Positions 1 through 58,747 of a stretch of DNA of 58,747 bases are shown here, in pieces. Numbering within the stretch: position 1 is the first letter of the stretch; each line of letters begins with the position of its first letter. Under the pieces are notes generated by a model that ran no database searches, was not told where the DNA came from, and saw only the letters and a program-made list of their open reading frames with translations. The stretch covers positions 1-58,747 of the forward strand of contig JBEKWR010000013.1 in NCBI GenBank assembly GCA_049512935.1, read 5' to 3'. This stretch comes from Candidatus Bathyarchaeia archaeon. Its GTDB lineage: Archaea; Thermoproteota; Bathyarchaeia; Bathyarchaeales; Bathycorpusculaceae. The position numbers were made by a program, and so were the translations under genes.

Positions 1-599
1 TCTAGAATTTCAATCTTTTTCTTAAACGTGGGACCGTCAGTCACGACCGTGTGGTACTCGCCGCCTTCCCCGCACGCGTCAACGTTGCCGAGCTTAAGGA
101 TGTCATCGTAGAATTTCCTGTCCAAAGTTCTTCCAAGCCACTCCACACCCAGCTTCTCCAGATTCGTGCGGACCACCGTCGCCTTGAAACCCGTTTTCAG
201 GTAGTCAAGGTAAATCTGTTTTGTGTCACCCATCCACAGGGGCTTCACCGGTTTTAACCCGACCTCGCCTAGCACCCGACCCAGCCAGCCCTGCTCGTGT
301 CCCGCTACCTCGTAGATGTCGCCTGTGACTAAGCCTTCAACGCCCTCCGCCTTGAACCGCCGCAGCGCCCCTTTGAAGTCGTCCTCGTAGGTTTTAGGCG
401 TCGCCTGCTGTTTCACCAGAGGAATGCCGATGGCGTCAGACTGCGCGTCCAAGATGCCCGCTGGTATCATGTGGAAGTTTGATTTTTCCTTGCTCATCAT
501 CATGGTTAAGATTTTGACCACTTCGTGCCCCTGCTGGGTTGCCAAGTACTGAGCATAGGCACTGTCTTTGCCGCCGCTCCATGAAGCAACAACTTTCAT
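1..599 (-). CDS. DUF71/COG2102 (Dph6-like) ATP pyrophosphatase, partial (3' end beyond window)
   Basis: Manual translation from ATG at 599: MKVVASWSGGKDSAYA...VTGDI...PLW...DACGEGGEYHTVVTDGP; PP-loop SGGKDS and GEGGEYHT motifs. Absent from the ORF track because there is no stop in the window. Confidence 0.9.
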   Translation of the reverse strand, partial: MKVVASWSGGKDSAYAQYLATQQGHEVVKILTMMMSKEKSNFHMIPAGILDAQSDAIGIPLVKQQATPKTYEDDFKGALRRFKAEGVEGLVTGDIYEVAGHEQGWLGRVLGEVGLKPVKPLWMGDTKQIYLDYLKTGFKATVVRTNLEKLGVEWLGRTLDRKFYDDILKLGNVDACGEGGEYHTVVTDGPTFKKKIEIL

Positions 600-615
600 T
601 TCAATTTATCCTCCA

Positions 616-837
616 TTAAGTGTCTTCACCCTCAACCGTTAATTTCCCGTGTCTAAGGTGAACATGACTTGCAAACTTTTTAGGCTTTTTAAACTCGGAA
701 ACATGTGAACAGTAAAATTCAGTTTTAGCCTTCAAACATCCAGATAATTTGCCTGCCGATAGAAGCTTGAAAGAAACGAGCGCGTTTTTCTCGATGTACG
801 GCAAATTATCACACCAGAGTTTGGTTGGTTTATCCAA
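616..837 (-). CDS. Possible small hypothetical protein
   Basis: 73-aa TTG-start ORF directly upstream of the DUF71 gene on the same strand; no recognisable motif. Confidence 0.25.
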   Translation of the reverse strand: MDKPTKLWCDNLPYIEKNALVSFKLLSAGKLSGCLKAKTEFYCSHVSEFKKPKKFASHVHLRHGKLTVEGEDT

Positions 838-1006
838 CCTTTTTCATATAAGCATTACGGTATTCAGAAGTAAGAACACAAAAAAGAAAACTACGAAGAG
901 GGTCAACCTCGCGTTTGCGTTTGCCCTGCACCCGAGCGGTGCCCACCGTTTACCATAACGCTTATAATACCTGTTGATTGAGTGAAGTTCACTCGGTTGG
1001 GCTGGG

Positions 1007-2164
1007 ATGGTTCAAACAAGGCTATGCATCGTCACGCACACTTTTCTGCCCCATGTCGGCGGCATAGAAAGGGTCGTGTATGAACAAAGCAAGCGGCTGA
1101 TGCAGAGAAACTTCAAGCCCATGGTCATTACGAACCGCATTGGCACGCCGAAAAGCTACGTGGTTGACGGCATACCAGTCCAGTGCTACGAGTCTTTAAA
1201 CACGGGTTTCCGCCTCGGCATACCCTACTCGATTCCCACGCCGACGAGCCTTGAAACGTTTCTTAAGGCGGTGAAGTCAAGCGACTTGGTTCACGCTCAT
1301 GGTCACCCCTACCTAACGTCTCTTGTCGCCGCCAAGCTTGCGAAGAGGTATCACAAGCCGTTCGTTCTCACGCAGCACAACACCTTCATCGAGTACGACA
1401 GCATGTTCGACAAGGTGGAGCGCCTCAACGACTTGGTCGTCGGCAAGGAAACGCTCAAAGACGCAGACAGAATAATCACGGTGAGCAACGCCACCAAACA
1501 GTACGTGCTCAGTTTAGGAGCTAAACCAGAAAAAATCAGAGTCCTACACAACGGCGTTGACCTAGTTCATTTCAAGCCTCTGCCGGGAAAACGGGCGGAG
1601 ATGAGGAAGCGACTTGGGATCCCTCAGAACGCAATCGTAGCCTTAACGGTGAGGAGGCTTGTCTACAAGAACGGCATCGACACGTTGATTGAATGTGCAA
1701 ACCTGTCGGTGAAGAAGAACCCCAACGTTTTTTTCCTCGTCGTGGGTAAGGGACCTGACCAAAACAGTGTACAAGCGAGAATACGCTTGCTAGGGATAGA
1801 AAACAACTTCAAGCTAGCGGGTTTCGTCAGCGAAAAGGACTTGCCCAGCTACTACAACGCCGCAGACTTCTTCGTTTTGCCGTCGAAATCTGGAGAAGGA
1901 TTGCCGCTGGTTGCGCTTGAAGCCATGGCCTGCGGGTTGCCCGTGATAGCCACAAACGTGGGTGGAATTCGCGAGATTTTAATAGAGGACTTCGGAAAAC
2001 TAGTACAGCCAAACGAGCCAGAACTTATGGCTGATGCGGTCTTGGAGTATTCACGCGTCGACCCTTCCCGGGGCAAGTCAGAGCTTCGGGCAGTGGTTGA
2101 GGAAAAGTACAGCTGGGACAAAAACGTTGAAACACTGGTGGGAATATACGAAGAGCTTATTTAA
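1007..2164 (+). CDS. Glycosyltransferase family 4 (GT-B)
   Basis: PHVGGIE N-terminal motif, HNGVD, EGLPLVALEAMACGLPVIATNVGG (E-x7-E). Confidence 0.93.
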   Translation: MVQTRLCIVTHTFLPHVGGIERVVYEQSKRLMQRNFKPMVITNRIGTPKSYVVDGIPVQCYESLNTGFRLGIPYSIPTPTSLETFLKAVKSSDLVHAHGHPYLTSLVAAKLAKRYHKPFVLTQHNTFIEYDSMFDKVERLNDLVVGKETLKDADRIITVSNATKQYVLSLGAKPEKIRVLHNGVDLVHFKPLPGKRAEMRKRLGIPQNAIVALTVRRLVYKNGIDTLIECANLSVKKNPNVFFLVVGKGPDQNSVQARIRLLGIENNFKLAGFVSEKDLPSYYNAADFFVLPSKSGEGLPLVALEAMACGLPVIATNVGGIREILIEDFGKLVQPNEPELMADAVLEYSRVDPSRGKSELRAVVEEKYSWDKNVETLVGIYEELI

Positions 2165-2207
2165 CCACGATGCGGAGAATGTATAGCCTTCACGATGGGA
2201 ATGAGCC

Positions 2208-2945
2208 ATGACGTCAAAAGTTGATCTGATTTCGGTCGTTATTCCAACACTTAACGAAGCAGGAAACATCCTTGAAGCAGTTACCACCATCGAGAAAGAA
2301 CTGACCTACCCGAAGGAGATAATTGTTGTCGACGGAAACTCCACCGATGGGACGATGGAAATTGTTAAAGACACAAGCTTCTGCAAGCTGATTATTGAAC
2401 CCAGACGGGGCTACGGCGTCGCTCTTAGGACAGGCATGAAGTACGCTAAGGGCAACATCATCGTGATGGTTGACGGCGACGGAACATACGAGGTTAGCCA
2501 AATCAACCGTTTGGTTGAAAGGATGATTGAGAAAGACGCCGACATGGTTTTAGCCACGCGCATGTACGACCCGAACAAAGCCATGGGCTTGCTGAATTTC
2601 ATCGGAAACAAAGTCATCACCTACGTCTACGACTTCTTTTACAGTCAATTCCTCAGCGACACGCAATCGGGGTTCCGAGCGATTTCCCACGAAGCCATCG
2701 ACAACGTCCACTTGAAAGAGGGAGACATGGCGTTTGCAACTGAGATGCTGGTTCAATTCGCCAAGGTGGGGTACAACATGGTTGAAGTTCCCACGACTTA
2801 CAAAGCGCGTAAGTACGGCAAGACCAAGCTTAAACCATTTAAGTCAGGTATTGAGATATTTAGCACGATATTCAAGGGATTTCTTGATGCAGATACGGTT
2901 AGAACGTGTCAAAAACATTGGAAAGAAAATCGGTTTAAACGATGA
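2208..2945 (+). CDS. Glycosyltransferase family 2, polyprenol-phosphate sugar synthase (DPM1-like)
   Basis: SVVIPTLNE, VVDGNSTDGT, RGYG, MVDGDGTY, DTQSGFRA. Confidence 0.9.
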   Translation: MTSKVDLISVVIPTLNEAGNILEAVTTIEKELTYPKEIIVVDGNSTDGTMEIVKDTSFCKLIIEPRRGYGVALRTGMKYAKGNIIVMVDGDGTYEVSQINRLVERMIEKDADMVLATRMYDPNKAMGLLNFIGNKVITYVYDFFYSQFLSDTQSGFRAISHEAIDNVHLKEGDMAFATEMLVQFAKVGYNMVEVPTTYKARKYGKTKLKPFKSGIEIFSTIFKGFLDADTVRTCQKHWKENRFKR

Positions 2946-3414
2946 CAAAGGCTACGTTGTCGCGACCCTTCTTGCCTTAATCATCGTTGCCTCCATGCTG
3001 GGCGTGTACTACGCGTTTTTTAGGGGAGCGCCCTCTGGGTACAGCACGATTTACATTCTTGACGCGAAGGGCAAGGCGGTTGATTACCCGCAAGTTTTGG
3101 TTGCCAATCAGAACAGCACGTTTACTGTGCCGTTTACGGTTGTCAACAGCATGGGATGGACAACGCAGTATGAGGTCTTAGTGAAAGTTACAGGCGAGCC
3201 TCCCACGTTCCCAGTAAACACTTCGCCCGTCGCAAACTACACGATGACCCTTAAGAATGGGCAGACCTGGCAGAAAACCGCCACCATAACGGAGAATCAG
3301 CCGGGCAGTTACTGGGTGGTTTTTGAGCTTTGGTACTACAACCCGAGCGTGATGGCTTACCAGTTTAATCCTGCCGCTAACTACTGCGTCCTGCCAATCC
3401 AAGTTGTAAGCTAA
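2887..3414 (+). CDS. DUF1616-like protein, C-terminal half (one TM plus soluble domain)
   Basis: TM followed by YSTIYILDAKGKAVDYP...VVN, resembling the DUF1616 C-terminal part; in-frame ATG at 2887 preferred over the track start at 2734. Confidence 0.65.
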   Translation: MQIRLERVKNIGKKIGLNDDKGYVVATLLALIIVASMLGVYYAFFRGAPSGYSTIYILDAKGKAVDYPQVLVANQNSTFTVPFTVVNSMGWTTQYEVLVKVTGEPPTFPVNTSPVANYTMTLKNGQTWQKTATITENQPGSYWVVFELWYYNPSVMAYQFNPAANYCVLPIQVVS

Positions 3415-4877
3415 GCCTTCTTGTGCCTTTCAGCGTACTCTTTTTCGATGGCTACCCTGTGAATGTTGTTGTAGGCGCAGAAAGGTATGATTTTCTTGTC
3501 AGGCGTGATGTAGTGCACGACGCAGCGTCGGACGCGGTTCACGTCGAAGTTGTAGGAATCCATGAACGCCATGCAGCCGAGCAGAAAGATTCTTCGGCGG
3601 ATTTTTCCCAGCGACTGATAAGACGGCGAAAGGTGCATCCGCATGATTGAGTTTGTCAGCGTTAACATGCCGACTTTCCTCGTGACTAGAAGCATGTTCA
3701 TTGAAAGCATCGACGCCATGAACAGAGATGAGAGCAGGGAAAGCTTTCCTTTTGATTCAGCGTTTTCAGCTGTTTTTCGGATTTGGTTGAAGAATCTTTC
3801 GAAGTTGACGAAGCGGTTGATGGGGTACATTTTGCCGTCTTTCGCAACGTAGATCCAGTTCACTATGCCGCACTGTGGGCTACAAGAGAACAGTGGCCAA
3901 GGCTTCTGCATAAACTTCCGCATTATCTTGATTGGTGAAGTCATAACCGACATGGGGAACAGGTCGGTGGTTTTTATTTCGCCGTAAGTTTGTTTTTCCA
4001 CGTCTTCTGCAAAGGACCATTCTCGGAAGTTTTCTCGGAACGGGTTTTCAGTGGCTCTGCCTGTGAAGGCGATGGGTTGGAATATTAAGCCGCGGACGAT
4101 GTCGGTGTTTTTGGCTGCGAACCGTATCATGTCGCCGACTTCTTTGTCGTTTAAGCTTTTCATTAAGGTGTTGACGAGGATGATTTCCATGTCGTATTTC
4201 CGGCAGACATCGATTGCCTTGAGTTTCATGTCTACGAGCGCTTGTCCCCGGATCTTCTTGTTGAAGTCTTCGTGGAAACTGTCAAAGGATAAGTAAACGA
4301 TGTTTAAGCCGTTGTCCTTGAGCTTCTTCGCCAGCCCAGGAGTGTCGACCAAATGTGTGCCGTTGGTCGCCAGGATAGTCATGAACTTTAGCCTGTGTGC
4401 AGCCCCGATTATTTCAGGCATGTCTTCCCGTTCCAGGGGTTCGCCGCCTGAAAAGAGGATGGCGGGGGGTTTGGGGTTGGCTTTGCTTACGAACTCCAGC
4501 ATGTCTATTAGTGCTTCTTTGGTTGGTTCGTAATCTACTTCTTGCTGTGGGAAGGTTGAGAAGCAAACTGCACATTTAAAGTTGCAGCGTTTCGTAACGT
4601 CAATAACGCCGATGACCGTGCCCGAAGCATGGTTGGTGCAGGTTTCGCAGACGTAGGGGCAGCCCTGCGGGTCTTTGGGAGCGTTCAAGTCGCCCAGGTA
4701 CTGGAATTGGTCGTAACTTTGCATGTGCTCAAAGACGGGTAGGCTTTGCCAGTGTGTGGCTTCGAAATCGCCGTGTTCTGGGCACTGCTTCGTGATTTTT
4801 ATTTTGCCGTTAGCTTCGGTTAGCTGAGCGTCTATTTTCTTCTGGCATTCTGGGCAGATGCTTTTTGTGTCGCTCAC
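3411..4877 (-). CDS. tes: Tetraether lipid synthase (Tes/GDGT-MAS, MJ0619 family) radical SAM enzyme
   Basis: N-terminal CPEC...CPEHG metal site, GCPYVCETCTNH auxiliary-cluster motif, CNFKCAVC rSAM motif, VRGLIFQPIAFTGR, and C-terminal GCMAFMDSYNFDVNRVRRCVVHYITPDKKIIPFCAYN, all characteristic of Tes. Confidence 0.85.
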   Translation of the reverse strand: MSDTKSICPECQKKIDAQLTEANGKIKITKQCPEHGDFEATHWQSLPVFEHMQSYDQFQYLGDLNAPKDPQGCPYVCETCTNHASGTVIGVIDVTKRCNFKCAVCFSTFPQQEVDYEPTKEALIDMLEFVSKANPKPPAILFSGGEPLEREDMPEIIGAAHRLKFMTILATNGTHLVDTPGLAKKLKDNGLNIVYLSFDSFHEDFNKKIRGQALVDMKLKAIDVCRKYDMEIILVNTLMKSLNDKEVGDMIRFAAKNTDIVRGLIFQPIAFTGRATENPFRENFREWSFAEDVEKQTYGEIKTTDLFPMSVMTSPIKIMRKFMQKPWPLFSCSPQCGIVNWIYVAKDGKMYPINRFVNFERFFNQIRKTAENAESKGKLSLLSSLFMASMLSMNMLLVTRKVGMLTLTNSIMRMHLSPSYQSLGKIRRRIFLLGCMAFMDSYNFDVNRVRRCVVHYITPDKKIIPFCAYNNIHRVAIEKEYAERHKKA

Positions 4878-5765
4878 TTATAGCCCTCCGATAATGTGGG
4901 ATAAGGCTTCAAGAATTAACGCTAACGGAAGCAGAATCATCGACATAGTCACAACCCGTTCATACTTCCGCACGTTCATAACATTCGAAGATCCCGTTAC
5001 AAGGCGAACTGAAGAGTAAATTAAAAGCACGCTCCAAACAAGAATAGGCACCAGATAGTAGACATTGAAGTTACCGATTAAGAAGGGAAGAGGCGCAAAC
5101 AAGCCAGTCAACAGGAAAAACCCAGCCGCCACCTTCGCCGAGTTGCCTATGCCGATTTTCTGCGGAAGCGTCGGGTACCCCGTTTTCGAGTCGCCGTCAA
5201 GGCTTAAGACATCGCGTAGCACGTTGCCGCCTATCGTGCCCAGCGCTATCGGGTAGAGGCTCAGAGAAACTATGCTTATGGTCGGCGGGCTGGTGATTGT
5301 TGCTTCCCCGTACAGGAAGGCAGTGCCTGTTAGAATCCCAACCAGAATGTTGGCTGCAAACCCTGACTTACGCTTCACAACCGTCGAGTAAACCAGCAGC
5401 AAAACGGAGTCAGCGGCGATAATCGCGAAGCTCAGCCAGTTGATGAAGAAAGCCATGACTAAGCCTGCCGCGAAAAGCACGGTTGAAACCGCCACGACCT
5501 GCCGCAATGTCAGCGAGCCTGAGGGTATGGGGCGCTTCGGCTTGATTACTGCGTCGCTTTCCCTGTCGAAGTAGTCGTTTATGGCGAATCCTGCGGATGT
5601 GATGAACGCCATGGAGAAGAAAATCAGCAGAACCGTCTCCCCGCTTAGGCTTAACGGGTTCTTTGTGATGGCGAAAGCTGTAAGAAGCGATAAGCCGCCA
5701 GTCATCAGCCAGTAGGGAAGCCGCAGAAGAGCGATGAGTCCTCTGGCTGGGGCTGGAGCAGCCAT
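4878..5765 (-). CDS. UbiA-family prenyltransferase, digeranylgeranylglyceryl-phosphate synthase-like
   Basis: INDYFDRESDAVIKPKRPIPSG and RDVLSLDGD...TLP aspartate-rich motifs; multi-TM; abuts tes. Confidence 0.85.
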   Translation of the reverse strand: MAAPAPARGLIALLRLPYWLMTGGLSLLTAFAITKNPLSLSGETVLLIFFSMAFITSAGFAINDYFDRESDAVIKPKRPIPSGSLTLRQVVAVSTVLFAAGLVMAFFINWLSFAIIAADSVLLLVYSTVVKRKSGFAANILVGILTGTAFLYGEATITSPPTISIVSLSLYPIALGTIGGNVLRDVLSLDGDSKTGYPTLPQKIGIGNSAKVAAGFFLLTGLFAPLPFLIGNFNVYYLVPILVWSVLLIYSSVRLVTGSSNVMNVRKYERVVTMSMILLPLALILEALSHIIGGL

Positions 5766-6703
5766 TAAAGTTTCCTGTCAGCGATGACTTCTTTTATGCT
5801 TTCTTCAAGGGTTATTTTCGGATTCCAATTTAGCGCTTTTTTGGTTTTGGAGATGTCGAACCAGATCGTGTAGATGTCTCCCTGCCATGAAACGCCCGTG
5901 GTGGTTATGACGGTTTTGTTTTGTAAGTTGAGGATTTGAAGCATCAGTTTGGCGAGGTCGATTATTCTTGTGGTTTTTCCGATGCCGATGTTGTATACTT
6001 CGCCGTTGGTAGACTCGTCCGAACCCACGATCACGAGCGCGTCAACGACGTCTGCAACGTTAACGAGGTCGCGTGACTGCAAGCCTGTGCCGATTATCTC
6101 CAGTTTAGTTGGGTCTTTGGCGATTTTGTCTAAGAAGTCGTGGATGACGCCGTGGCATCTTAACCCGTAAACGTTGGCGAACCTCACGATGGTGACGTCT
6201 AAGCCGTACTGGTCCCTATACATGCCGCAGTACTCTTCCCCGACCACCTTGGACATGCCATAACATGAAACTGGGTGGAAACCGTACTCCTCCTTGGTTG
6301 GCAGCTGCGTCGGGTTTCCGTAGACTGCGGCGCTGGAGGCGAAAACAAGCTTCGCGTCGTCCTTTCGGGCTTTCTCGAGGACGTGCAGGGTTCCTTTGGC
6401 GTTGGTTTCGAAATCGATAAGCGGGTTCTCCATCGAGTAGGGGACGACGACTTGGGCGGCTAAGTGGTAGATTAAGTCGGCTTTCTCCACTGAATACAGC
6501 TTTTTCAGGTCCAGAATGTCGCCTTTCACAAGTTTAACTTTGCCAACGTCCCTGACGTTTTCCATTTTGCCGCTTGACAGGTCATCGTAAATCGTCAGGT
6601 TAGATGTTAAGCCTGAAAGACGCTTGCACAGGTGATAGCCGATGAAGCCTGCTCCGCCCGTGACAAGTATTTTTTTCCCCGTTAGTTCCCCCATGCCTAC
6701 CAC
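5765..6703 (-). CDS. NAD-dependent NDP-sugar epimerase/dehydratase
   Basis: TGGAGFIG, HLAA, SSAAVYG, YGMSK (YxxxK), NVYG. Confidence 0.92.
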   Translation of the reverse strand: MVGMGELTGKKILVTGGAGFIGYHLCKRLSGLTSNLTIYDDLSSGKMENVRDVGKVKLVKGDILDLKKLYSVEKADLIYHLAAQVVVPYSMENPLIDFETNAKGTLHVLEKARKDDAKLVFASSAAVYGNPTQLPTKEEYGFHPVSCYGMSKVVGEEYCGMYRDQYGLDVTIVRFANVYGLRCHGVIHDFLDKIAKDPTKLEIIGTGLQSRDLVNVADVVDALVIVGSDESTNGEVYNIGIGKTTRIIDLAKLMLQILNLQNKTVITTTGVSWQGDIYTIWFDISKTKKALNWNPKITLEESIKEVIADRKL

Positions 6704-6741
6704 GACAAAGCCTATATTCCCTTTCAGTAGTTGTAGGGTAT

Positions 6742-8186: not shown

Positions 8187-8260
8187 CGTTTTAGGGAAAT
8201 ATTTAACATCCCCGCATAACCTACTCTAAACCTGTTGCTGTTTCGGGAGGTCTACCTCGG

Positions 8261-10646: not shown

Positions 10647-10692
10647 CAAGAGCTTAAATGCAAAATTCTCACTCTATGCAGAGGGCAATATT

Positions 10693-11385: not shown

Positions 11386-11402
11386 ACTTGAAAATCTCTC
11401 AA
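11364..11402 (-). pseudogene. Remnant 5' end of a HepT/DUF86 HEPN toxin gene
   Basis: TTG overlaps the MNT stop (TTGA) and reads MRDFQVYDKVLS*, similar to DUF86 N-termini (MRDxxxY), then terminates inside the opposing ORF. Confidence 0.45.
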
Positions 11403-13951: not shown

Positions 13952-13956
13952 CTTGC

Positions 13957-51395: not shown

Positions 51396-53801
51396 CTAAG
51401 TCTGGTTGTAATTGCTCAAGACTTTAAAGATCACGTATCGGTCGTTCGAGTAGATCTGCTGCAGGAATTTGCATCGCGAGATGTTAGGGTCAAGCTGGTT
51501 CTTGTCGTAAACGATGAATCCTATGTTGTTTTCTGCGATGTAATCTTTGAAGTCTCGGGTCGACACTGTGAACTGACCTGGATTGTAGCTGAGGAGGCTT
51601 TCAAGAATGTTTGGCTGCAACGTTGGAAAATTGTTTTTTGACAGGCAAAGAACTTGGTACTGCCGTGTAACTGTCTGGTTGGCGTTGATTTCGCTAAATT
51701 GGTATTCAAACCTCACGGCATCTATTTGCCTGTTTGCCAAGGCACCGATGTTTCCCCAATCAGGCAAATCTGTAAAGTTAAGCGCGTAACCAATTTGATT
51801 CTTATCATCGTAAACACCGATATACTTGTCCGTCAACGCTGAACCTGAAAAACTGACGGCTGCCCATAGTGTTCCGTCAGTGGTTTTCGAAGGCATGTCC
51901 CAAGGGTTAGCCCAGTTCGTGAATTGAGGTATCTGCGCCTTATCAAAATCAAACTGCCCGTCAAAATAGTTAGTTATGTAGAGGGTGACGTTCGATATGC
52001 CGCTGGTTAAGGGGGACAGACCCCAAGAAACGTTGGTTGCATAACTGTCGTTTTGAACAAGCAGCGTCTCTGTTAATGCCACATAATTATTTGAGAACAC
52101 AGTTTCTAACTGGGTGGAACTACTATTGTCGTTGAAGTTTGTGTCTCGCGCTAAGTCGGAAAGGGGAAAGTCGTAGTACGTGCCATTTTGAGTGAATGAG
52201 ACAAAATCCCCCGCTGTCGAAGAATAGGACACCCGATACCAAACTTGATTAATAGAAACATAATTCTCTTCGCTGATATCTCCATATGCGTCGTAAACTT
52301 TCAACAAGTTTTGAGGAGTCTGAATTTGATAAGACAGACTTAAAACTGACCCGGCAATGTCGTTCGTGTTCACCGTCGCCGCAGTTTCCGCAATAACGTT
52401 TTTGCCGGAAAAAGCAGAGAACCAAAAACCAGGAACCTCTGTATCAACTACCGTGGCGTTATTCGGGTAGTTTTGCTTAAGCCAAACGCCCGCGTCATAC
52501 GCCTTGATGTCGGTTGTCGAATAGAAAACGCTGGCTTGTAATATCTTCCCGTAAACTACGTCCGAACGGAAAACGAGCACAACAACCATCAACACAACAA
52601 GAGAAACCGTCAGTATCTTGAGCCAGTTTTTGCGAACGGGGTCAATCAGGCGACGCCTAAGAGCGGCTTGAAAGCCGCCGAGAAACTTGTATCCATGAAC
52701 TCCAAATGCTCCAGACTGGAGAGGGACCCCGTATGCAATGGTTTTTTGTCTATTTTTTGCGTAATATGACAGAAACTTTTCTTCAAAAAACACGACGGAA
52801 ACAGCAGCGAAGATAGCCAGCGGAGGCGTCAAGTAATACATAAACCATTGGAAAGGCATGAAGAAACCAAAAAGATAAGACTCGGCGAAGAAAAGCGGAA
52901 CAAAGAAACTGAGCATCAATATCACATATGAAATTAACTTCTGTTCTTTTCTCAGTAAAAAGTATGAGATAGCAATACCTGCCACGCCTAAGAAGAAGAT
53001 GAAGCCGAAATTGTACATGAAAGCGTTAAAGCTGACGTACGGAATCTGGTAAGCGTAGGTTTTCACGGCAAAAAACACGTATTCAACGACAAGCCCGATG
53101 TAGCCAATCATGGCTTGGAAATAGTAGAGGAAGAAAGCTATGCCGCCGCCCAGAATCAACGCCACTACGACTTTAAGGTAGGCACCTTTAGATTTTACAA
53201 GCATGTAAAGCAGGATCGGCGGCAGCATTATAACGGCTAAGAAAGCAGCAAGCTGATGGGACAAAACAACTGCAAAAGCCGCAAGAAAAGTAACCACGAG
53301 GTAACCGAACTGCTCTATTGCCTTTGTTAAGTAAAGAAGCAGAAAAACGATAAACGTTATACCCAGCACCGTAGTGTAGCCGCCAAACTGGTTAGCTTCA
53401 TACACTGGAAAACACATCAGCAACAAAACAACACTCACAGCCCCAACTTTCTTGCTAAAAAACCTGCTAGCAATCAAATAAACACCCATGAAAAGCAGCC
53501 AATCAACAATTGCCGCCAAAGCTTTCACTAAAAAAATCATCTGCCCCACACCCGTTGCGCCGCTAAAAGAAATCAGCATCGCAAGCAAAAGCTCGTAAAG
53601 AGGCGGCGTCCAACCCAAGTTAGCCAAGGGAATGTTACCAGTCTGCAGGAAAATCTGGGCTTTAACTAAGTGAACGGCCGGATCATTCCCAAGCACTACA
53701 CCATTCATGGATATGACGGTGTAGAAGATGAGCAAGACAAGCACAGAGAAAACAGTGAGGAAACCGATTTCAAGCTGCCTTTCTCTAAGTTTACTCATCA
53801 A
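51396..53801 (-). CDS. Polytopic membrane protein, GT-C-type glycosyltransferase-like
   Basis: GNDPAVH in the first loop, WTPPLY, more than 10 TMs, then a soluble domain starting AGVWLKQNYP...GFWF. Confidence 0.7.
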   Translation of the reverse strand: MMSKLRERQLEIGFLTVFSVLVLLIFYTVISMNGVVLGNDPAVHLVKAQIFLQTGNIPLANLGWTPPLYELLLAMLISFSGATGVGQMIFLVKALAAIVDWLLFMGVYLIASRFFSKKVGAVSVVLLLMCFPVYEANQFGGYTTVLGITFIVFLLLYLTKAIEQFGYLVVTFLAAFAVVLSHQLAAFLAVIMLPPILLYMLVKSKGAYLKVVVALILGGGIAFFLYYFQAMIGYIGLVVEYVFFAVKTYAYQIPYVSFNAFMYNFGFIFFLGVAGIAISYFLLRKEQKLISYVILMLSFFVPLFFAESYLFGFFMPFQWFMYYLTPPLAIFAAVSVVFFEEKFLSYYAKNRQKTIAYGVPLQSGAFGVHGYKFLGGFQAALRRRLIDPVRKNWLKILTVSLVVLMVVVLVFRSDVVYGKILQASVFYSTTDIKAYDAGVWLKQNYPNNATVVDTEVPGFWFSAFSGKNVIAETAATVNTNDIAGSVLSLSYQIQTPQNLLKVYDAYGDISEENYVSINQVWYRVSYSSTAGDFVSFTQNGTYYDFPLSDLARDTNFNDNSSSTQLETVFSNNYVALTETLLVQNDSYATNVSWGLSPLTSGISNVTLYITNYFDGQFDFDKAQIPQFTNWANPWDMPSKTTDGTLWAAVSFSGSALTDKYIGVYDDKNQIGYALNFTDLPDWGNIGALANRQIDAVRFEYQFSEINANQTVTRQYQVLCLSKNNFPTLQPNILESLLSYNPGQFTVSTRDFKDYIAENNIGFIVYDKNQLDPNISRCKFLQQIYSNDRYVIFKVLSNYNQT
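52638..52730. mobile_element. 93-bp in-frame hairpin-rich element with terminal inverted repeats (MITE-like or intron-like)
   Basis: ACGGGGTC (52636-52643) and GACCCCGT (52725-52732) form a perfect inverted repeat; three internal inverted repeats. Confidence 0.4.
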
Positions 53802-53809: not shown

Positions 53810-56116
53810 TTATCCCCCGATCTGATTGATGTCCGATCTAACCTTAAAAATGGCAACTTCATTGTTAATAAATACAAGGCTAAACTCGGGGTCACACGCA
53901 AATTTGGCGTTTACGCCAAAATCTCGGTTTGCAACGTAGGAAATCGAGTTCGCCTGCAAAGCCTCTTTATAATCAAACGTGGTGATAGGCAAAGTTTCAA
54001 CTGGTTTCTGCGCGTTTTGAACGTTATCCATCAACGTCTTGTTAAGGCTCGCCGGGTTCACAACATCATTTTCCGTGACCTGGTAGACTCCAACCAAAAT
54101 CTGTATTTCCGCAGAAGACTTCCCCTGCAAATTGTAAGAGAGCTGTGTGACACATGGGTTTGCCGCGTTAAACGAGGAGATTAAGGGCTGATTTTTCACG
54201 AAAATTAGTTGACCGACCTCTTTCAATCCTGGATCCAACATCGCAATGGTGTTGTTGAACGGCTGCAGAAATTCGCCTTGGGCATTCATCACGAAATTGA
54301 TCCAGTCTAAGGAGACATTCTGGTTGATGCTTTGAACCACTATGGTCATGTTTGCGAAGGCAACGCCCTGGGAAACCGTCAGGATTTCTGAGTAACTGAA
54401 GTCGCTGTTCGCCTTCTCAACCACGATTGACGGGCTGCTACTCTGCGCGCCTACCATTTGCATGTTGGTTACAGGGACCTGTGTTATGTCAGTGGACTGC
54501 ACAGACCCAGCATTCTGCGAAAGCAACGTGATTTCGCTATCGTTAAACTGAAAGAACGGAAACGGGAAATAAGTCCAGTTAAGGTCTGCCAGAAACTCAG
54601 GATTATGTCTCCCAACGTAACCGCCATCTTCTCTAACTTGAACGTAACCGTTATCGATAACATAATCCGTGTCAAGCAGGTTAGATGCAACAGTCGCTGG
54701 GGCTAACTCGCTGTTAACCGTTAAGTACTGCGGTTGAACCGCGCTTAAGGTTGGCCGCTGTGCAAAACCGCCAAGCCACCACCCGTAAAGAGCGTCAGAC
54801 ACAAACACCGAGCCGGGCGGAGTGTTTTGCTGGGCCCATTGAATGGCTTGGTAACCAGGATTGTCCATCACTTGATAGAAACTTTGAATTGTAACGCCTT
54901 GCCACGGCGTAAGAAAGATCGGGAGAGTTAGTAGAAAAATAAGAATGAAGCCTAATGCGAACAGTGAATAAACTCTCTTACCTGTTAAACCGGCTGAGAT
55001 ACGCGATGCCCACTTGTTCGCGTTCCGCTTTGTCTTCTGAATTTGGCTGGTAAGAGCGCGGTAAGTGTCTGTCAGGTGTGAAAAGTACGCTGCGCCGTGG
55101 TCTATCATGACGGCGAAAACTATTATGACAGGCAAGACCAAAAAGTAAAGAAACCGATTGTAATCAACGTAGAGCCCAAACATGAAGCCCTGCGTAAGCA
55201 CCAAGGGAACGAAAAGCCACATGATCAGCAGGAAACTTGGAAGCGAAAGGAATCGGCGTTTGTATTTTTTGGACAACAAGAAGAGCGGCAAAAGACAAGC
55301 GAAGAGAGCTAACACTTCATCGAGAGGAAGCACCCTCGTCGAAAGAATCGCTTGATTAATAGCGTTAACAGCGGAAAATGAAGAGTTAGCGCTCAAATAA
55401 GCTGGAACTGCACTTGCCAAGAAAGGCGAAACAAGAAGGGCTCCGCCTAACAGCGGGAGCAGCCAAAAGGAAACGTTTTTTCTCGTTGTCCCGAAAGTTT
55501 TAGGAAAAAGCAGCCCAAAAAGAACTGTAGAGACAGTGATGCCGACAAAAACGACGGCGCTCAAGGAGTGCGTCAGGAAAATTGAACCCACCAGAATTGA
55601 GGTTGAAACAAGAAACGGCGCAGACGACAACTTTTCTCTACGGAGAAACAAGTAGAAGGTCACAGGAATCAAAAGCAGAGTTATTACGTTGGGGTAGCCT
55701 GCCCACATAAGCATCTCAATATCGAAGCGGGAGACCGCGACCAAAAAAGCAACAATGAAAGCCGCTGATTCACTCCACACCGCCCGAGTTATCAAGAAAG
55801 CAGCTAAAACAATAAACGAGGAAAAGAAAGCTACAGTGACCGCTTGCGCCACGTAGTCGGACATGCCAGTCACGAGGATTACGCCTGAAGTGAAAATGTG
55901 GAAACCAGGGAACGTTAACGATTGCCCTCCCCCCATCTGGTAGTAATCATACAGAAAATTGGTGTGCCCCGACGGATTGATCGAGTTAATGACGCTGGCA
56001 TGCAAGCCTATGTCGGCACCAGGCGGAAAACCCTGCCAAAACATTAGAACTACGCGGTAAATGAACGCGAAAACGAGGATTAAGGGCAGTAGCACATATT
56101 TTTTTTCTTTGAACAT
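53810..56116 (-). CDS. Polytopic membrane protein, GT-C-type glycosyltransferase-like (paralog of 51396-53801)
   Basis: GADIGLH, FPGFH, WAGYPN, THSLS, then AIQWAQQNTP...SDALYGWW. Confidence 0.7.
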   Translation of the reverse strand: MFKEKKYVLLPLILVFAFIYRVVLMFWQGFPPGADIGLHASVINSINPSGHTNFLYDYYQMGGGQSLTFPGFHIFTSGVILVTGMSDYVAQAVTVAFFSSFIVLAAFLITRAVWSESAAFIVAFLVAVSRFDIEMLMWAGYPNVITLLLIPVTFYLFLRREKLSSAPFLVSTSILVGSIFLTHSLSAVVFVGITVSTVLFGLLFPKTFGTTRKNVSFWLLPLLGGALLVSPFLASAVPAYLSANSSFSAVNAINQAILSTRVLPLDEVLALFACLLPLFLLSKKYKRRFLSLPSFLLIMWLFVPLVLTQGFMFGLYVDYNRFLYFLVLPVIIVFAVMIDHGAAYFSHLTDTYRALTSQIQKTKRNANKWASRISAGLTGKRVYSLFALGFILIFLLTLPIFLTPWQGVTIQSFYQVMDNPGYQAIQWAQQNTPPGSVFVSDALYGWWLGGFAQRPTLSAVQPQYLTVNSELAPATVASNLLDTDYVIDNGYVQVREDGGYVGRHNPEFLADLNWTYFPFPFFQFNDSEITLLSQNAGSVQSTDITQVPVTNMQMVGAQSSSPSIVVEKANSDFSYSEILTVSQGVAFANMTIVVQSINQNVSLDWINFVMNAQGEFLQPFNNTIAMLDPGLKEVGQLIFVKNQPLISSFNAANPCVTQLSYNLQGKSSAEIQILVGVYQVTENDVVNPASLNKTLMDNVQNAQKPVETLPITTFDYKEALQANSISYVANRDFGVNAKFACDPEFSLVFINNEVAIFKVRSDINQIGG

Positions 56117-56235: not shown

Positions 56236-56664
56236 ATGTCTTGGCTTAAATCTATGATGGAGAAAGAGCCTCCAGAACCAGAGAATCCAATCGGCGTTGT
56301 CGTTATTGGCAATATCGAACCGGACATGCATGACACAGCAAAAGAAGCAGTCAGAAGGTCACTAAAACGCGCTGGGTTTAAAACAATCGACGTTGGCAAA
56401 AGCGTTGCCCCGCAAGTCTTCGTTGACAAGGCAAGAGAGAACAACGCAGACCTTATCGCAATTTCGGTGAACACGGTGCCAGCTAAGAACAATCTGCCGA
56501 AGCTTGATGAAGCGTTAAAGGCCGCCGGACTCAAAGGCAAAGTCGCCATAATCATGGGCGGTGCCGCCGTCAAAAAAGAAGACGCTGACGCTATGGGTGC
56601 ACTCTTTGGCAAAAACAAGGAAGAGGCTCCTGAACTCGCAAAGAAAGCAATAGGCAAAAAATAA
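56236..56664 (+). CDS. Stand-alone cobalamin-binding (corrinoid) protein
   Basis: IEPDMHDTAK (DxH motif), DVG, IAIS, IMGGAAV; B12 Rossmann domain only. Confidence 0.88.
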   Translation: MSWLKSMMEKEPPEPENPIGVVVIGNIEPDMHDTAKEAVRRSLKRAGFKTIDVGKSVAPQVFVDKARENNADLIAISVNTVPAKNNLPKLDEALKAAGLKGKVAIIMGGAAVKKEDADAMGALFGKNKEEAPELAKKAIGKK

Positions 56665-56682: not shown

Positions 56683-57594
56683 ATGTCCTTTAAATTCAAC
56701 ACGGAACAAAAGATATACACTGTCGGACGGGCTAAAGTAGGCGGTCAGCCAGGAGAACTACCGACTTTCCTGATTGGCTCCATCTTTTGGCTTGGCCAGA
56801 AAATGGTTCAAGACGCAAACAAGGGTATTTTTGATGCGAAGGCAGCTGAGGACATAATCAACACGATGCAGACTCAAAGTGACATTACGGGTGTGCAGTT
56901 CGCTTTTGACATTGTTGGAACTACTGATATGGCCTTTGAGAAGTACATTGACTTCGTTGCAAAACACAGTGAAGCACCGTTGATGCTTGATGCCATGAGT
57001 CCAAAGACACGTATGATGGCGGCTACTACCGCGAAGAAGATGGGTCTTGCAGACAGATGTCTCTACAACTCAGTTTACAAAGGTGTAACTGATGTTGAAT
57101 TGGCGAATTTGAAAGAAAGCGGCGTCAAAATGTCCATAGTGCTTGCTGATGACCCTAAAGATACCACCATGGAGGGTAAAATGAAGGTTATCCAGGAAGC
57201 ATTAGCGTTGGCAGAAAAAGGTGGAATCACGAAGCCTTTGATTGACACAGCTATTCCCGCGTTCGCTCCAGACATGGGCACTGCCGTTAGAACTATACCG
57301 ATCATGAAAGAGAAGTATGGTCACCCAGTAGGCTTGGGCAGCGGAAACGTTGTCACAACCATGGGTTGGGTTAAAGCTAACGTTGCTAAAGAATTTCGCC
57401 CCGGATGCAGAACCTCAACCAACTCGATAATGCAGACAGCAGGCGCAAACTGGCTAATGATTGGACCCGCAGAGCAGGCAGAATGGATTTTCCCAGCCGT
57501 TGCAGTAACTGACACGTATATTGCTTCAGCCGCAGGCGACCTTGGAACGAGACCAATAGACGAGACTCACCCGATCTACAAGATGTTCATGTAA
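56683..57594 (+). CDS. mtrH: Methyl-H4MPT/H4F:corrinoid methyltransferase, MtrH/MtgA-like
   Basis: FKF...GGQPGELPTFLIGSIF, PLMLD, LYNS, PLIDTA, KYGHPVGLGSGN. Confidence 0.85.
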   Translation: MSFKFNTEQKIYTVGRAKVGGQPGELPTFLIGSIFWLGQKMVQDANKGIFDAKAAEDIINTMQTQSDITGVQFAFDIVGTTDMAFEKYIDFVAKHSEAPLMLDAMSPKTRMMAATTAKKMGLADRCLYNSVYKGVTDVELANLKESGVKMSIVLADDPKDTTMEGKMKVIQEALALAEKGGITKPLIDTAIPAFAPDMGTAVRTIPIMKEKYGHPVGLGSGNVVTTMGWVKANVAKEFRPGCRTSTNSIMQTAGANWLMIGPAEQAEWIFPAVAVTDTYIASAAGDLGTRPIDETHPIYKMFM

Positions 57595-57597
57595 AAA

Positions 57598-57618
57598 CCC
57601 CTTTCCTTATTTTTTATT
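57598..57618 (+). terminator. Probable pyrimidine-rich terminator
   Basis: CCCCTTTCCTTATTTTTTATT just after the mtrH stop. Confidence 0.5.
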
Positions 57619-57643
57619 GTTAAAGTTTTGAAGCGCGGAAAAT

Positions 57644-58036
57644 CTGAAGCCTCTTAGATGGTTTGAAATTATCGTTGCCTTCACGGTTCTAACGTTAGCT
57701 GTGACTTACTTTATTCCCGGCAACTCGTTTTTTGCGGTTTTGCGTTATGTTTTCGGTTTTGTCTTTGTCGTTTTTCTTCCCGGTTACTGTTTGATTAATG
57801 CTTTGTTTACGGGCAAGAACAGGCTTGATTCTGTCGAGCAGCTTGTGTTGTCGGTGGCGTTGAGTTTTGGTTTAGATGGTTTGATAGGTTTGTTTCTGGG
57901 TCTTTCGCCCATAGGCATCAATTTTACTTCGATAACGGTTTCGCTTAGCGCTGTGGTGCTGGTTTTTGCGGCTGTCGCGTTGGCGAGAATGCTACGAGAG
58001 CCTGATGTGCAGAGCTCTGAGCAGGTAAGCGCCTGA
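57644..58036 (+). CDS. DUF1616-like protein, N-terminal membrane half
   Basis: LRYVFGFVFVVFLPGY...LDSVEQLVLSVALS...LGLSPIGI. Track start is GTG 57701; the frame is open to CTG 57644, which adds a first TM. Confidence 0.75.
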   Translation: MKPLRWFEIIVAFTVLTLAVTYFIPGNSFFAVLRYVFGFVFVVFLPGYCLINALFTGKNRLDSVEQLVLSVALSFGLDGLIGLFLGLSPIGINFTSITVSLSAVVLVFAAVALARMLREPDVQSSEQVSA

Positions 58037-58747
58037 AGTTTTCACCGCTGACTTCCCGTATGTTCCGCCCCTGCGCATCATGTGAAGAACGTATCCTGGG
58101 CGCAGGTAGAATTGCTGGTAGGCTTTGTAGCGGATTTCCGAGAGTTTCTCCATGGTCAGCCACGGGGTTTCAAAGGTTGGTCCCGCCGTGTCGTATTTGT
58201 CGAAGTCTGTGACCCGTAGCCAACCGTTCTTCTTAACTTGCTCGTACATGGGCGTTCCTGGGTAAGGCGTAGCAACGTAGAAGCCGACGTCATCGAGTTT
58301 AAGTTCCTTAACAAAGCGAATCGTTTCTTTTGCTGTCTGCTCCGTTTCGCCTGGGAAACCCAACACAACGTTCCCAATCGTCATTAACCCAACTTCAGTT
58401 GCTGTCTTAAATGCTGTGCGTGTTTGGTCAAGCTTGATTTTCTTGTTCATCTTACCCAAAATCACTTCGGAACCTGACTCGACGCCCATCCAAACAGCTA
58501 TGCAGCCTGCTTCATGCATGGTTTTGAGCATTTCTCGGTCAACCATGTCGACGCGTGTGCCGCAGTCCCACGTCATGTCGAGTTTTCGGGCGTGGAGTTC
58601 CTCGCAGATTTTGAGGACTCGGTCGCGGTTAACTGAGAAGGCGTCGTCGTAGAAGGTGACTTGGTCTACGCCGTACTTGTCGTGGACTAGCTGCATTTCG
58701 TCGACGACGTTTTTGGGGCTTCTGAAACGGTAGCCTCTGCCGAACAT
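57992..58747 (-). CDS. Cobalamin-dependent radical SAM enzyme, partial (5' end beyond window)
   Basis: FYDDAF, CGTRVD, GVESGS, DVGFYVATPYPGT; close to the C-terminal halves of 21163-22575 and 31247-32632. Confidence 0.88.
   Translation of the reverse strand: MFGRGYRFRSPKNVVDEMQLVHDKYGVDQVTFYDDAFSVNRDRVLKICEELHARKLDMTWDCGTRVDMVDREMLKTMHEAGCIAVWMGVESGSEVILGKMNKKIKLDQTRTAFKTATEVGLMTIGNVVLGFPGETEQTAKETIRFVKELKLDDVGFYVATPYPGTPMYEQVKKNGWLRVTDFDKYDTAGPTFETPWLTMEKLSEIRYKAYQQFYLRPGYVLHMMRRGGTYGKSAVKTSGAYLLRALHIRLS

Follow-up and report, generated by a model that had tools for sequence, protein, structure and literature searches.

Bridged and methylated tetraethers serve as environmental proxies, and Bathyarchaeia are among the most abundant archaea of peat and sediments. 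The described systems that lie closest to the locus reported here are the enzyme Tes and the gene clusters that modify glycerol dialkyl glycerol tetraethers (GDGTs). Tes is described as carrying four metal sites, namely a rubredoxin-like site, an N-terminal cluster, the radical S-adenosylmethionine (SAM) CX3CX2C site and a C-terminal cluster (PMC13459092). Gms, described as a homolog of AhbD with an N-terminal extension of about 100 residues, often clusters with Gmm, a cobamide (B12)-dependent radical SAM enzyme (B12-rSAM); many Bathyarchaeota are reported to carry several homologs of the Gmm2 clade, and most Gms sequences of peat metagenomes to cluster with Bathyarchaeota (PMC11214058). One Bathyarchaeal B12-rSAM is described as a tetraether desaturase (10.1101/2025.10.20.683597). 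Here we analyze a 58,747-nt contig of a Candidatus Bathyarchaeia archaeon (contig C13, taken at its full length and called the window below). Judged by its sequence, this locus is a new, expanded form of the known GDGT-modification gene clusters, centered on a lineage-specific paralog of Tes, designated Tes2. The contig appears to be a single copy of an island, about 55-60 kb long, that is conserved in peat and soil Bathy-6 Bathyarchaeia, and it is a strong candidate locus for unusual archaeal membrane lipids; lipid tailoring is the best-supported reading of the island, and we put it forward tentatively.

The window makes up 2.56% of the 2.30-Mb, 49-contig genome (93% complete) of a Bathy-6 Bathyarchaeon of peat, and its GC content of 49.0%, against 47.7% for the genome, lies inside the range of other 58.7-kb windows. 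Every gene class listed in the original prediction, made from the nucleotide sequence, was confirmed within these 59 kb by Pfam (run on 51 open reading frames, ORFs) and NCBIfam (run on 48); Rfam and tRNA scans of the window returned nothing. Radical SAM genes are concentrated here: 12 of the 37 genomic matches to PF04055 (Radical_SAM) fall in the window where 0.95 would be expected (binomial P = 8e-11, a value that overstates the enrichment because paralogs arise side by side), as do seven of the 11 genomic matches to PF02310 (B12-binding). The window holds seven of the genome's ten B12-rSAM genes, the other three lying on C1, on C7 and, split, on C36 and C3. Six of the seven B12-rSAMs that had been predicted are complete, and the seventh is cut by the contig end so that its radical SAM half alone is visible.

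The first part of the window is organized around Tes2. Its leading genes, with the coordinates and strand of each, are as follows.
3-599, minus strand: DUF71_a, a PP-loop ATP pyrophosphatase-like protein cut by the contig start (PF01902, 164 bits).
1007-2164, plus strand: GT4_a, a glycosyltransferase of the core (PF00534 and PF13439).
2208-2945, plus strand: GT2_a, an AglJ/Dol-P-hexose-synthase-like protein of the core, syntenic (PF00535; TIGR04182 165 bits, below the cut-off of 325).
2734-3414, plus strand: DUF1616 C-part membrane protein of the core, syntenic, start uncertain (PF07760, 44.9 bits).
3411-4877, minus strand: Tes2, a paralog in the GDGT-MAS family (NF045702, 459.5 bits against a cut-off of 450).
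4878-5765, minus strand: UbiA2, a second copy of a prenyltransferase resembling digeranylgeranylglyceryl phosphate (DGGGP) synthase (PF01040, 116 bits).
5765-6703, minus strand: SDR, an NAD-dependent epimerase/dehydratase (PF01370, 182 bits).
6742-7572, plus strand: CobS2, a divergent CobS paralog (TIGR00317, 106.2 bits, below the cut-off of 110).
7569-8186, plus strand: CobY2, a divergent CobY-like guanylyltransferase (63 bits to M. jannaschii CobY, 2MZB).
8261-9694, plus strand: SPASM_a, a Gms-like, AhbD-like radical SAM protein with a SPASM domain (TIGR04545, 316 bits over residues 118-467, below the cut-off of 500).

The original prediction listed a Tes homolog in the window. On comparison, this gene is a divergent second paralog and not the lineage's orthologous Tes, the canonical copy of this genome being split between the ends of contigs C12 (68880-69494) and C16 (7-471). 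Tes2 aligns over residues 4-482 to M. jannaschii GDGT-MAS (PDB 7TOL, 369 bits), with the rubredoxin-like CxxC...CPEHG, the GCPYxCxxCxNH, the CX3CX2C and the C-terminal Cys motifs all in register, and these motifs correspond to the four described Tes metal sites. A scan of 41 genomes with NF045702 separated two score classes, about 34 matches at 556-690 bits and 20 full-length matches at 451-494 bits; the window protein belongs to the lower class (459 bits), and the split canonical copy is the high-scoring one. In a quick maximum-likelihood tree of 27 chosen sequences (12 Tes2, 14 canonical and one aberrant), the Tes2 sequences form a single clade (SH-aLRT 100), which a long branch separates from the canonical copies of those genomes; identity to canonical Tes within the order is 34-39%. 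In a set of 1.84 billion representative proteins, one full-length close relative of Tes2 was found (46% identity, 472 bits) and the next full-length matches reach at most 314 bits. Because the nearest relatives outside Tes2 yield a single organism name, Aenigmatarchaeota (37% identity), the donor lineage of Tes2 cannot be named. The aberrant sequence of the tree comes from G032, a genome of family f9 whose sole Tes match (C42:4483-5952, L164; 443.8 bits) is 26% identical to Tes2 and sits on a very long branch.

An order-wide survey covered 151 genomes in 63 genera and 12 families. Tes2-type genes occur in 42 of these genomes and in seven genera, six of them in family f1 and one (g16) in family f7. 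A class-wide scan of 301 genomes agrees with this distribution: matches of the Tes2 type (at least 44% identity) are confined to f1 and to g16 of f7, in 38 genomes, and all remaining matches are canonical Tes at 39-42% identity. Eighty public loci with Tes2 copies 82-96% identical to that of the window are labeled Candidatus Bathyarchaeota or Bathyarchaeia, 'Bathy6' metagenome-assembled genomes (MAGs) or one of several Candidatus Bathycorpusculum species, and positions 1000-10700 of the window recur in peat and wetland metagenomes of several studies, mostly at 99% identity or above in contigs of runs X4, X5 and X6.

UbiA2 is likewise a second copy. This gene, DGGGP-synthase-like in the original prediction, falls below both DGGGP synthase equivalog cut-offs (PRK12884, 171.8 against 269; PRK12882, 171.3 against 296), whereas the UbiA paralog on C22 scores 249.1 and 188.7, respectively; UbiA2 keeps the first Asp-rich motif, NDxxDxxxD, at residues 63-71. 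SDR, UbiA2 and Tes2 are tightly packed, with a 1-nt overlap between SDR and UbiA2 and no gap between UbiA2 and Tes2, and across a 38-bp interval the SDR gene diverges from CobS2 and CobY2, which overlap by 4 nt. Of 80 species-level genomes of the genus, 79 have UbiA2 no more than 10 kb from Tes2, 78 have SDR there, 75-76 CobS2, 75 CobY (59 at 50% identity or more) and 53 SPASM_a, the last a count to be read against the 61 loci that reach at least 8 kb on that side. The order GT4_a-GT2_a-DUF1616-Tes2-UbiA2-SDR-CobS2-CobY2 is unchanged in six genomes of genera g18, g21, g22 and g28; GT4_a adjoins Tes2 in g1, g18, g21, g22, g28 and g16, and Tes2, UbiA2 and SDR are also adjacent in g16. This eight-gene core, arranged as GT4-GT2-DUF1616 / Tes2-UbiA2-SDR / CobS2-CobY2, keeps its order in every Tes2-bearing lineage. 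DUF71_a is kept beside the core in family f1 and scores 133 bits to TIGR03679 (Dph6), below the cut-off of 197. One metatranscriptome run contains three mismatch-free contigs within Tes2 (3691-3915) and SDR (5842-6109 and 6169-6394), a weak hint that both genes are expressed, given that DNA carry-over is possible in such libraries; RNA run X24 leaves most of 1-20000 uncovered and carries no weight either way. The ORFs of GT2_a and the DUF1616 C-part overlap by about 200 nt in different frames, and the same overlap is present in relatives G001 and G012.

Adjacent to this core, SPASM_a has a 117-residue N-terminal extension ahead of its AhbD-like core, conserved across the order. Its sequence fits the published description of Gms, from which description the likeness is drawn. 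The N-domain of Gms has six helices and is assigned to COG4001, 'predicted metal-binding protein'. The extension of SPASM_a lacks a homolog of solved structure, PDB matches to SPASM_a being absent before profile position 80 and nearly all beginning at 113-126. Full-length homologs occur in 92 of the 151 genomes and 42 of the 63 genera, and a protein search gave at least 120 matches, all of those listed being 78-94% identical Bathyarchaeial 'radical SAM protein' entries. Genomes that bear Tes2 have a single SPASM_a gene, beside either the Tes2 block or the B12 cluster; in the window, 10 kb separate it from the nearest B12-rSAM.

The second part of the window carries the B12-rSAMs together with further radical SAM genes.
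19768-21138, minus strand: B12_1, a class B radical SAM enzyme of subfamily A (PF02310 and PF04055).
21163-22575, minus strand: B12_2, subfamily B, with orthologs in the same seven genera as Tes2.
23877-25253, plus strand: B12_3, subfamily A (Pfam, tree).
31247-32632, plus strand: B12_4, subfamily B (Pfam, tree).
33862-35313, plus strand: B12_5, subfamily D (Pfam, tree).
44112-45521, plus strand: B12_6, subfamily C (Pfam, tree).
57992-58747, minus strand: B12_7, subfamily B, cut by the contig end with the radical SAM half visible (Radical_SAM profile from position 22).
40555-41640, plus strand: SPASM_b, a radical SAM protein (PF04055 and PF13186; AhbD model 215.8 bits, below 500).
50237-51316, plus strand: SPASM_c, a radical SAM protein (Pfam/NCBIfam).
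45619-46920, plus strand: HemN-like (class C) radical SAM protein, a second copy, the other being on C10 (PF04055 and PF06969; ChuW/HutW 186 bits, below 400).

All six complete B12-rSAMs combine an N-terminal B12-binding domain with a radical SAM domain (PF02310 and PF04055). In seven of the 15 Tes2-lacking genomes examined, a B12-rSAM gene comes immediately after the SPASM_a homolog. A quick tree of 27 sequences, from which the truncated B12_7 and the split C36/C3 gene were left out, groups these gms-linked B12-rSAMs as a clade (SH-aLRT 97) that is sister (91) to B12_6, B12_2 and B12_4. For six of the seven gms-linked proteins the closest match in the window is B12_6 (40-43% identity), and for the seventh, from G033, it is B12_2. 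B12_7 is 58% identical to B12_2 and has a full-length, 83% identical ortholog in G014. B12_1/B12_3 and B12_5 form separate old subfamilies, and each subfamily has orthologs in both G012 and G040. A search of a protein atlas placed B12_2 in generic B12-rSAM clusters only (Bathyarchaeota, Planctomycetota, Nitrospinota and Methanobacteriota). The original prediction had called these radical SAM enzymes lipid-modifying; the Gms-like SPASM_a and the sister relationship of four of the seven B12-rSAMs to gms-linked ones speak for this putative role. Two candidate assignments were discarded, namely B12_1/B12_3 as BzaD/BzaE, on score, and the C36 fragment as the missing N-terminus of B12_7, since that fragment and the gene that opens C3 are pieces of one gene. 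Assembly breaks fall inside paralogous genes, namely this B12_5-like gene (C36, 6-386, and C3, 1-1047) and the canonical Tes.

The claims that the cluster is more than a chance neighborhood and that its Tes-type and B12-rSAM-type genes belong together were both supported, the first by synteny across two families and the second by a single phyletic distribution. B12_2 orthologs together with B12_6-type matches (E <= 1e-120) occur in 45 of the 151 genomes and in exactly the seven genera that bear Tes2. Both genes are present in 41 genomes and neither in 105; one genome has Tes2 only (84% complete) and four have the B12 gene only (81-90% complete). Tes2 and a B12_2-type match share a contig at a distance of 50 kb or less in 23 of the 42 Tes2 genomes (hand tally), namely in nine of 12 genomes of g1, both of g23, 12 of 16 of g16 and none of the 12 of g18, g21, g22 and g28. 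The closed genome G040, from genus g16 of family f7, has a Tes2 that is 45% identical to the window copy, and 55 kb of it (432,010-486,519, an island that ends at GatB/GatA) contain homologs of 28 of 46 window ORFs in a different order (at least 35% identity and 70% coverage). G008 carries its Tes2 block on one contig and its B12 genes on another. Taken together, these linkage data indicate that the island consists of two modules inherited together, often but not always adjacent.

We propose that the first part, at about 1-16.4 kb, would be a second ether-lipid module. UbiA2 would transfer a prenyl chain to a polyol-phosphate backbone in the manner of DGGGP synthase, Tes2 would, in the manner of Tes, use radical C-C coupling to link saturated isoprenoid chains at their ends, the Gms-like SPASM_a would introduce a further C-C bridge, and SDR with the GT4 and GT2 enzymes would add sugars. 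In the second part, at about 18.6-58.7 kb, the seven class B cobamide-dependent enzymes from four old subfamilies, together with two SPASM enzymes and the HemN-like enzyme, may, in the way of Gmm, Cgm or Ted, modify the alkyl chains through C-methylation or similar radical reactions, with CbiB, CobD, CobS and CobY finishing the cobamide that the B12-rSAMs require. Lipid tailoring is the best-supported reading because the core is syntenic, the two parts share seven genera, the island is conserved in G040, and a Gms-like SPASM_a occurs with B12-rSAMs that are sister to gms-linked ones.

Comparison with the described systems places the window next to, and apart from, each of them. As in gms-gmm(-grs) clusters, an AhbD-like SPASM protein with an N-terminal extension lies near B12-rSAM genes, and as in bacterial gms loci, where gms clusters with tes or mss, a Tes-type gene is close by (PMC11214058); unlike gms-gmm clusters, the window has seven B12-rSAMs of four subfamilies in place of one and adds a Tes paralog, a UbiA paralog, cobamide genes and glycosyltransferases. 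Tes2 is homologous over its full length to Tes/GDGT-MAS (7TOL), with all metal-site motifs, and like MA_1114 of Methanosarcina acetivorans (PMC8941075) it is a second copy beside a canonical Tes, but unlike either it forms a clade of its own tied to UbiA2, SDR, CobS2 and CobY2. The Ted-Hgs-Grs locus of Ca. Bathyarchaeota B1_G15 has a Bathyarchaeal B12-rSAM from the wider Gmm family, one whose targets are GDGT tails, and function was guessed from gene neighborhood, as here; in contrast, the window lacks an AttH-like hydratase, and its B12-rSAMs have 456-483 residues whereas Ted homologs were collected at 500 residues or more (10.1101/2025.10.20.683597). The Bathy-6 expansions of B12-rSAM and PQQ genes concern the same lineage and the same gene families, with 7-20 B12-rSAMs per MAG; that account gives a lignin reading and, in the passages cited here, mentions neither clustering with a Tes paralog nor a lipid role (PMC11697101). 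We found no published description of a Tes paralog tied to UbiA, CobS and CobY, or of the island, and the supplements of PMC11697101 (Fig. S7 and Table S4) may map these genes. The island offers about 12 candidate enzymes for bridged and methylated tetraethers in a peat lineage, all of them open to test in the hosts in which Gms, Gmm and Ted were expressed.

Several points weigh against lipid tailoring. MA_1114 gave no GDGT on expression (PMC8941075), so a Tes paralog need not make tetraethers; second Tes homologs have been without a function since that failure, and the fixed partners of Tes2 (UbiA2, SDR, CobS2, CobY2 and two glycosyltransferases) indicate a set for co-expression. Domain content, paralog status, synteny, the shared phyletic distribution and kinship to gms-linked B12-rSAMs are observations, from which we infer every substrate and lipid product, and Gms- or Gmm-family membership of the window proteins is likewise a deduction from sequence. 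None of the seven B12-rSAMs reaches an NCBIfam cut-off (best, BchE, 257 against 481). In 19 of the 42 Tes2 genomes, including all 12 of g18, g21, g22 and g28, the two parts are unlinked, being on different contigs or over 50 kb from each other, and because the genomes are kin, the phyletic pattern of Tes2 and the B12 genes may reflect as few as two gain or loss events. The best-match families of nearly all window radical SAM proteins (BchE, AhbD/NirJ and HemN/ChuW) have tetrapyrroles as substrates, and cobamide genes abound in the island. SPASM_b and SPASM_c adjoin secreted PQQ-like propeller proteins, and the B12-rSAM on C1 adjoins a propeller::PMT_2 fusion. Finally, the Bathy-6 study interprets the B12-rSAMs and PQQ proteins as lignin-related, without experiments (PMC11697101).

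The cobamide genes bear on the first alternative, in which the B12-, SPASM- and HemN-like enzymes would modify a corrinoid, its lower ligand or another tetrapyrrole, with the Tes2 module merely adjacent. In addition to CobS2 and CobY2, three genes belong to this group.
14740-15294, plus strand: hyp184, a small protein with three transmembrane (TM) segments by TM scan, overlapping the cobD start and syntenic with CobD, including in G040.
15278-16384, plus strand: CobD, threonine-phosphate decarboxylase, the only genomic copy by tblastn (TIGR01140, 283.1 against a cut-off of 290.55).
32821-33663, plus strand: CbiB, the only genomic copy (TIGR00380, 217.2, above the cut-off of 165.9).
CbiB stops about 40 profile positions early, and the 29-residue hydrophobic ORF that follows it at 33718-33807 is conserved in G012, G014 and G001; either a split of CbiB in this lineage or an erroneous gene call may account for this.

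An own cofactor supply, as originally claimed, stood in part: the genome's only CbiB and CobD are here, and the CobS and CobY genes are divergent second copies tied to Tes2. For the latter pair the claim is only partly right because a canonical operon of CobT-like, CobS and CobY genes lies on C15, beside a CbiQ-type transporter; by synteny with G012 and G001, this end of C15 probably adjoins the window start. The C15 CobS scores 155 bits to TIGR00317, and the C15 CobY scores 91.9 bits to 2MZB against 63 for CobY2. CobY2 is below both equivalog cut-offs (NF045495, 91.6 against 250; TIGR00454, 121.8 against 174.7), as is the C15 copy (122.3 and 152.2). As for likeness to CobT-CobS-CobY/CbiB/CobD/CbiZ loop assembly, CbiB passes its model, CobD and CobS fall within a few bits of theirs, and CobY2 aligns end to end with M. 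jannaschii CobY; unlike in a cobamide loop operon, CobS2 and CobY2 are the lower-scoring pair and are tied to a lipid-type operon, not to CobT. The large cobamide demand of ten genomic B12-rSAMs, seven of them in the island, is tied in one locus to loop-assembly genes, which bears on the B12 ecology of anoxic soils.

Corrinoid or tetrapyrrole tailoring draws further on the top NCBIfam families (BchE, AhbD/NirJ and ChuW/HemN), on CbiB, CobD, CobS and CobY in the window with CobT-CobS1-CobY1 probably just beyond its start, on CbiZ and a CobQ/CbiP-like gene in the G040 island (which also has further methyltransferases), and on the BzaCDE homologs reported at the Bathy-6 B12 locus (PMC11697101). 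Even the best scores fall far below the cut-offs (144 against 450 for BzaD, 257 against 481 for BchE, 316 against 500 for AhbD), all seven B12-rSAMs being far below the BzaD, BchE, HpnJ and HpnR equivalogs. The BchE and AhbD best matches do not discriminate between the two readings because Gms and Gmm are themselves AhbD-like and BchE/HpnJ-like. Moreover, pairs of a Gms-like and a B12-rSAM gene occur in genus g30, where CobS is present in only two of 20 genomes. We consider this explanation unlikely.

The behavior of CobS2 and CobY2 raises a narrower question within lipid tailoring. An order-wide scan of CobS is bimodal (122-152 against 82-105 bits); all 40 full-length low-scoring proteins are encoded on the Tes2 contig within 6 kb of Tes2 (hand tally), and none was found in Tes2-lacking genomes. 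CobS2 and CobY2 remain beside Tes2-UbiA2-SDR also in genera whose B12-rSAM genes lie elsewhere (g18, g22 and g28). A role in cofactor supply does not predict this, which leaves hitch-hiking in a cobamide-themed island or recruitment to the lipid pathway. Were recruitment true, CobY2 would activate a phosphate ester with GTP, and the membrane enzyme CobS2 would transfer the activated ester to a hydroxyl to form a phosphodiester, a GDP-dependent parallel to the CDP-alcohol pathway for polar head groups. The pair would then follow Tes2 and UbiA2 in every genome, and not the B12-rSAMs, because it serves the lipid pathway. That the eight-gene core makes a new class of membrane-spanning glyco- or phospho-lipid with CobS2 and CobY2 so recruited is a speculative proposal that we regard as very unlikely.

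The second alternative is maturation of envelope proteins or peptides, in which the B12 and SPASM enzymes would modify secreted propeller or Ig-like proteins, or peptides, before export, and the GT2 and GT-C-like genes would glycosylate them. The genes concerned are these.
13957-14640, minus strand: GT2_c, AglJ-like (PF00535; TIGR04182 166 bits, below 325).
26603-29413, minus strand: 936-residue surface protein with a signal or TM segment at both ends, Ig-like, of a multi-copy family.
37615-40305, minus strand: PQQ896, a PQQ-like beta-propeller surface protein (PF13360).
41711-43948, plus strand: PQQ-like beta-propeller surface protein (Pfam).
51396-53801, minus strand: 801-residue protein, a possible GT-C with about 12 TM segments and a distant paralog of its 768-residue neighbor (E 4e-7).
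53810-56116, minus strand: 768-residue protein, a possible GT-C with about 12 TM segments.

A SPASM_b or SPASM_c gene adjoins the PQQ896 ortholog in G014, G012, G001 and G040, the B12-rSAM on C1 adjoins the propeller::PMT_2 fusion, ApyD and a C-methyltransferase model for ribosomally synthesized peptides (RiPP) are among the top NCBIfam matches, and the window has two AglJ-like Dol-P-hexose synthases as well as the two 12-TM proteins. The 16 intergenic gaps hold no precursor-like conserved small ORF, however, the conserved small products being a 100-residue protein, a 119-residue protein and the 29-residue TM peptide downstream of CbiB; and since propellers are a large multi-copy family of Bathy-6, with 46 reported in one complete genome (PMC11697101), two in 59 kb come close to expectation. 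An envelope role of this kind seems improbable. In the GT-C-like pair that it enlists, each protein has about 12 predicted TM segments and a large C-terminal domain, and a protein atlas gave a lead (0.92 to clusters with PMT_2/STT3 in 11-57% of members); against this stand the lack of any Pfam or NCBIfam family match (Pfam E <= 5, one stray aside) and a BLASTP comparison of the 768-residue protein with a PMT_2 domain of the same genome that was not significant (E 2.4). GT-C is a plausible, putative label. The gene pair on C1 (L104:9068-13367), outside the window, encodes a 493-residue B12-rSAM and then an 801-residue PQQ-like beta-propeller::PMT_2 (GT-C) fusion, an arrangement suggesting that in this lineage the 'PQQ' propellers belong to the envelope and need not be dehydrogenases.

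A third alternative denies any common function and sees a plastic, paralog-rich stretch that accumulates second copies and is held together by descent only. Most genes are indeed extra copies (Tes, UbiA, CobS, CobY, HemN, MtrH, corrinoid protein, DUF71, SPASM and B12), there are two strain-specific low-GC insertions, and the parts are unlinked in 19 of 42 genomes. Yet the linkage outlasts family-level divergence and reshuffling, as the 28 of 46 ORFs retained in 55 kb of G040 attest, and co-occurrence is nearly perfect, with 41 genomes having both parts and 105 neither among 151. We therefore give this account little credence.

Other functional claims of the original prediction found no support, and the genes that they concern are listed here.
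47956-49341, minus strand: fusion of an RnfD-like membrane protein to a 2x[4Fe-4S] ferredoxin (PF03116 and Fer4 families).
56236-56664, plus strand: corrinoid protein, MtgC-like (PF02310).
56683-57594, plus strand: MtrH/MtgA-like methyltransferase (PF02007, 253.8 bits; TIGR01114, 262 against a cut-off of 271.4).
An own electron supply through RnfD-ferredoxin is pure conjecture, though the gene is conserved in the island (the fusion is found in G014, G012, G040, G110 and G122, and tblastn found no second RnfD in the genome). In class B radical SAM methylases, the methyl group that is donated comes from SAM. A pair of the MtrH/corrinoid type is described as MtgA/MtgC of methoxy-group metabolism (PMC11697101), and the window pair, of which both members have further copies elsewhere in the genome, is MtgA/MtgC-like; an own methyl supply is therefore unsupported. 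A link to butanetriol or pentanetriol tetraethers (BDGTs, PDGTs) found no support either, as BDGTs are assigned as a marker to a marine Bathy-8 genus (PMC12694404) and the island is confined to peat and soil Bathy-6. It is quite unlikely that the B12-rSAMs and PQQ proteins act on lignin fragments while MtrH and the corrinoid protein move methoxy methyls, as proposed in print for the 7-20 B12-rSAM genes per MAG and the PQQ proteins (PMC11697101) and as an MtgA/MtgC-like pair in the window and at the edge of the G040 island might suggest, for the published proposal was drawn purely from annotation, radical SAM enzymes are cytoplasmic, the Pfam and NCBIfam calls of the window include no aromatic-degradation genes, and the shared Tes2-UbiA2 distribution and the gms-linked kinship would be left unexplained.

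The remaining genes of the window are the following.
9771-10646, plus strand: DUF362 protein downstream of SPASM_a, syntenic in 49 of 80 loci and not found in the G040 island (PF04015, 161.6 bits).
11763-13148, minus strand: GT4_b, syntenic (PF00534 and PF13439).
12959-13951, minus strand: GT2_b, syntenic (PF13641 and PF00535).
18614-19375, plus strand: DUF71_b, with an ortholog only in G012 among the genomes laid out (PF01902, 127 bits).
22694-23404, minus strand: DUF71_c (PF01902, 107.9 bits).
25254-26105, minus strand: class I SAM methyltransferase, syntenic in G014, G012, G001 and G040 (PF08241).
29940-30971, plus strand: tandem Lrp/AsnC regulator (PF13404 and PF01037).
35944-37509, minus strand: amidohydrolase (Amidohydro_3), syntenic including in G040 (PF07969, 321 bits).
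47047-47772, minus strand: hyp241, a protein of about four TM segments, syntenic with the HemN-like and RnfD-ferredoxin genes (TM scan).
49617-50168, plus strand: membrane-anchored winged-helix protein (Pfam, TM scan).
57701-58036, plus strand: DUF1616 N-part membrane protein (PF07760, 75.5 bits).

Two small ORFs without a Pfam match are conserved in relatives. One, of 100 codons (19452-19754, plus strand), lies between DUF71_b and B12_1 and is 65% identical in G012; the other, of 119 codons with a hydrophobic stretch (35573-35932, plus strand), lies between B12_5 and the amidohydrolase and is 55-58% identical in G012 and G001.

Of the two strain-specific insertions, that at 16268-18479 looks like a small integrating element. 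It comprises 2.1 kb of 37% GC flanked by a 114-nt direct repeat (16268-16381, the 3' end of cobD, and 18366-18479) whose copies are 90% identical, and it carries one 494-residue ORF (hyp494) without a homolog in relatives. A contig of run X5 joins position 18398 to 16301, as expected from a circle or a tandem copy of a 2098-bp unit. The insertion at 10647-11762 (38.5% GC) encodes a 230-residue ORF without matches (hyp230) and a 97-residue MntA-like nucleotidyltransferase. PADLOC returned nothing for hyp494 and hyp230 and matched the nucleotidyltransferase to the candidate system PDC-S09 (103 bits). Outside the window, the most divergent B12-rSAM of the genome lies on C7 (L105:1197-6456) near a TetR regulator and an MFS transporter, a neighborhood of the type also described for cgm, the cyclized-GDGT methylase gene (10.1101/2025.10.20.683597).

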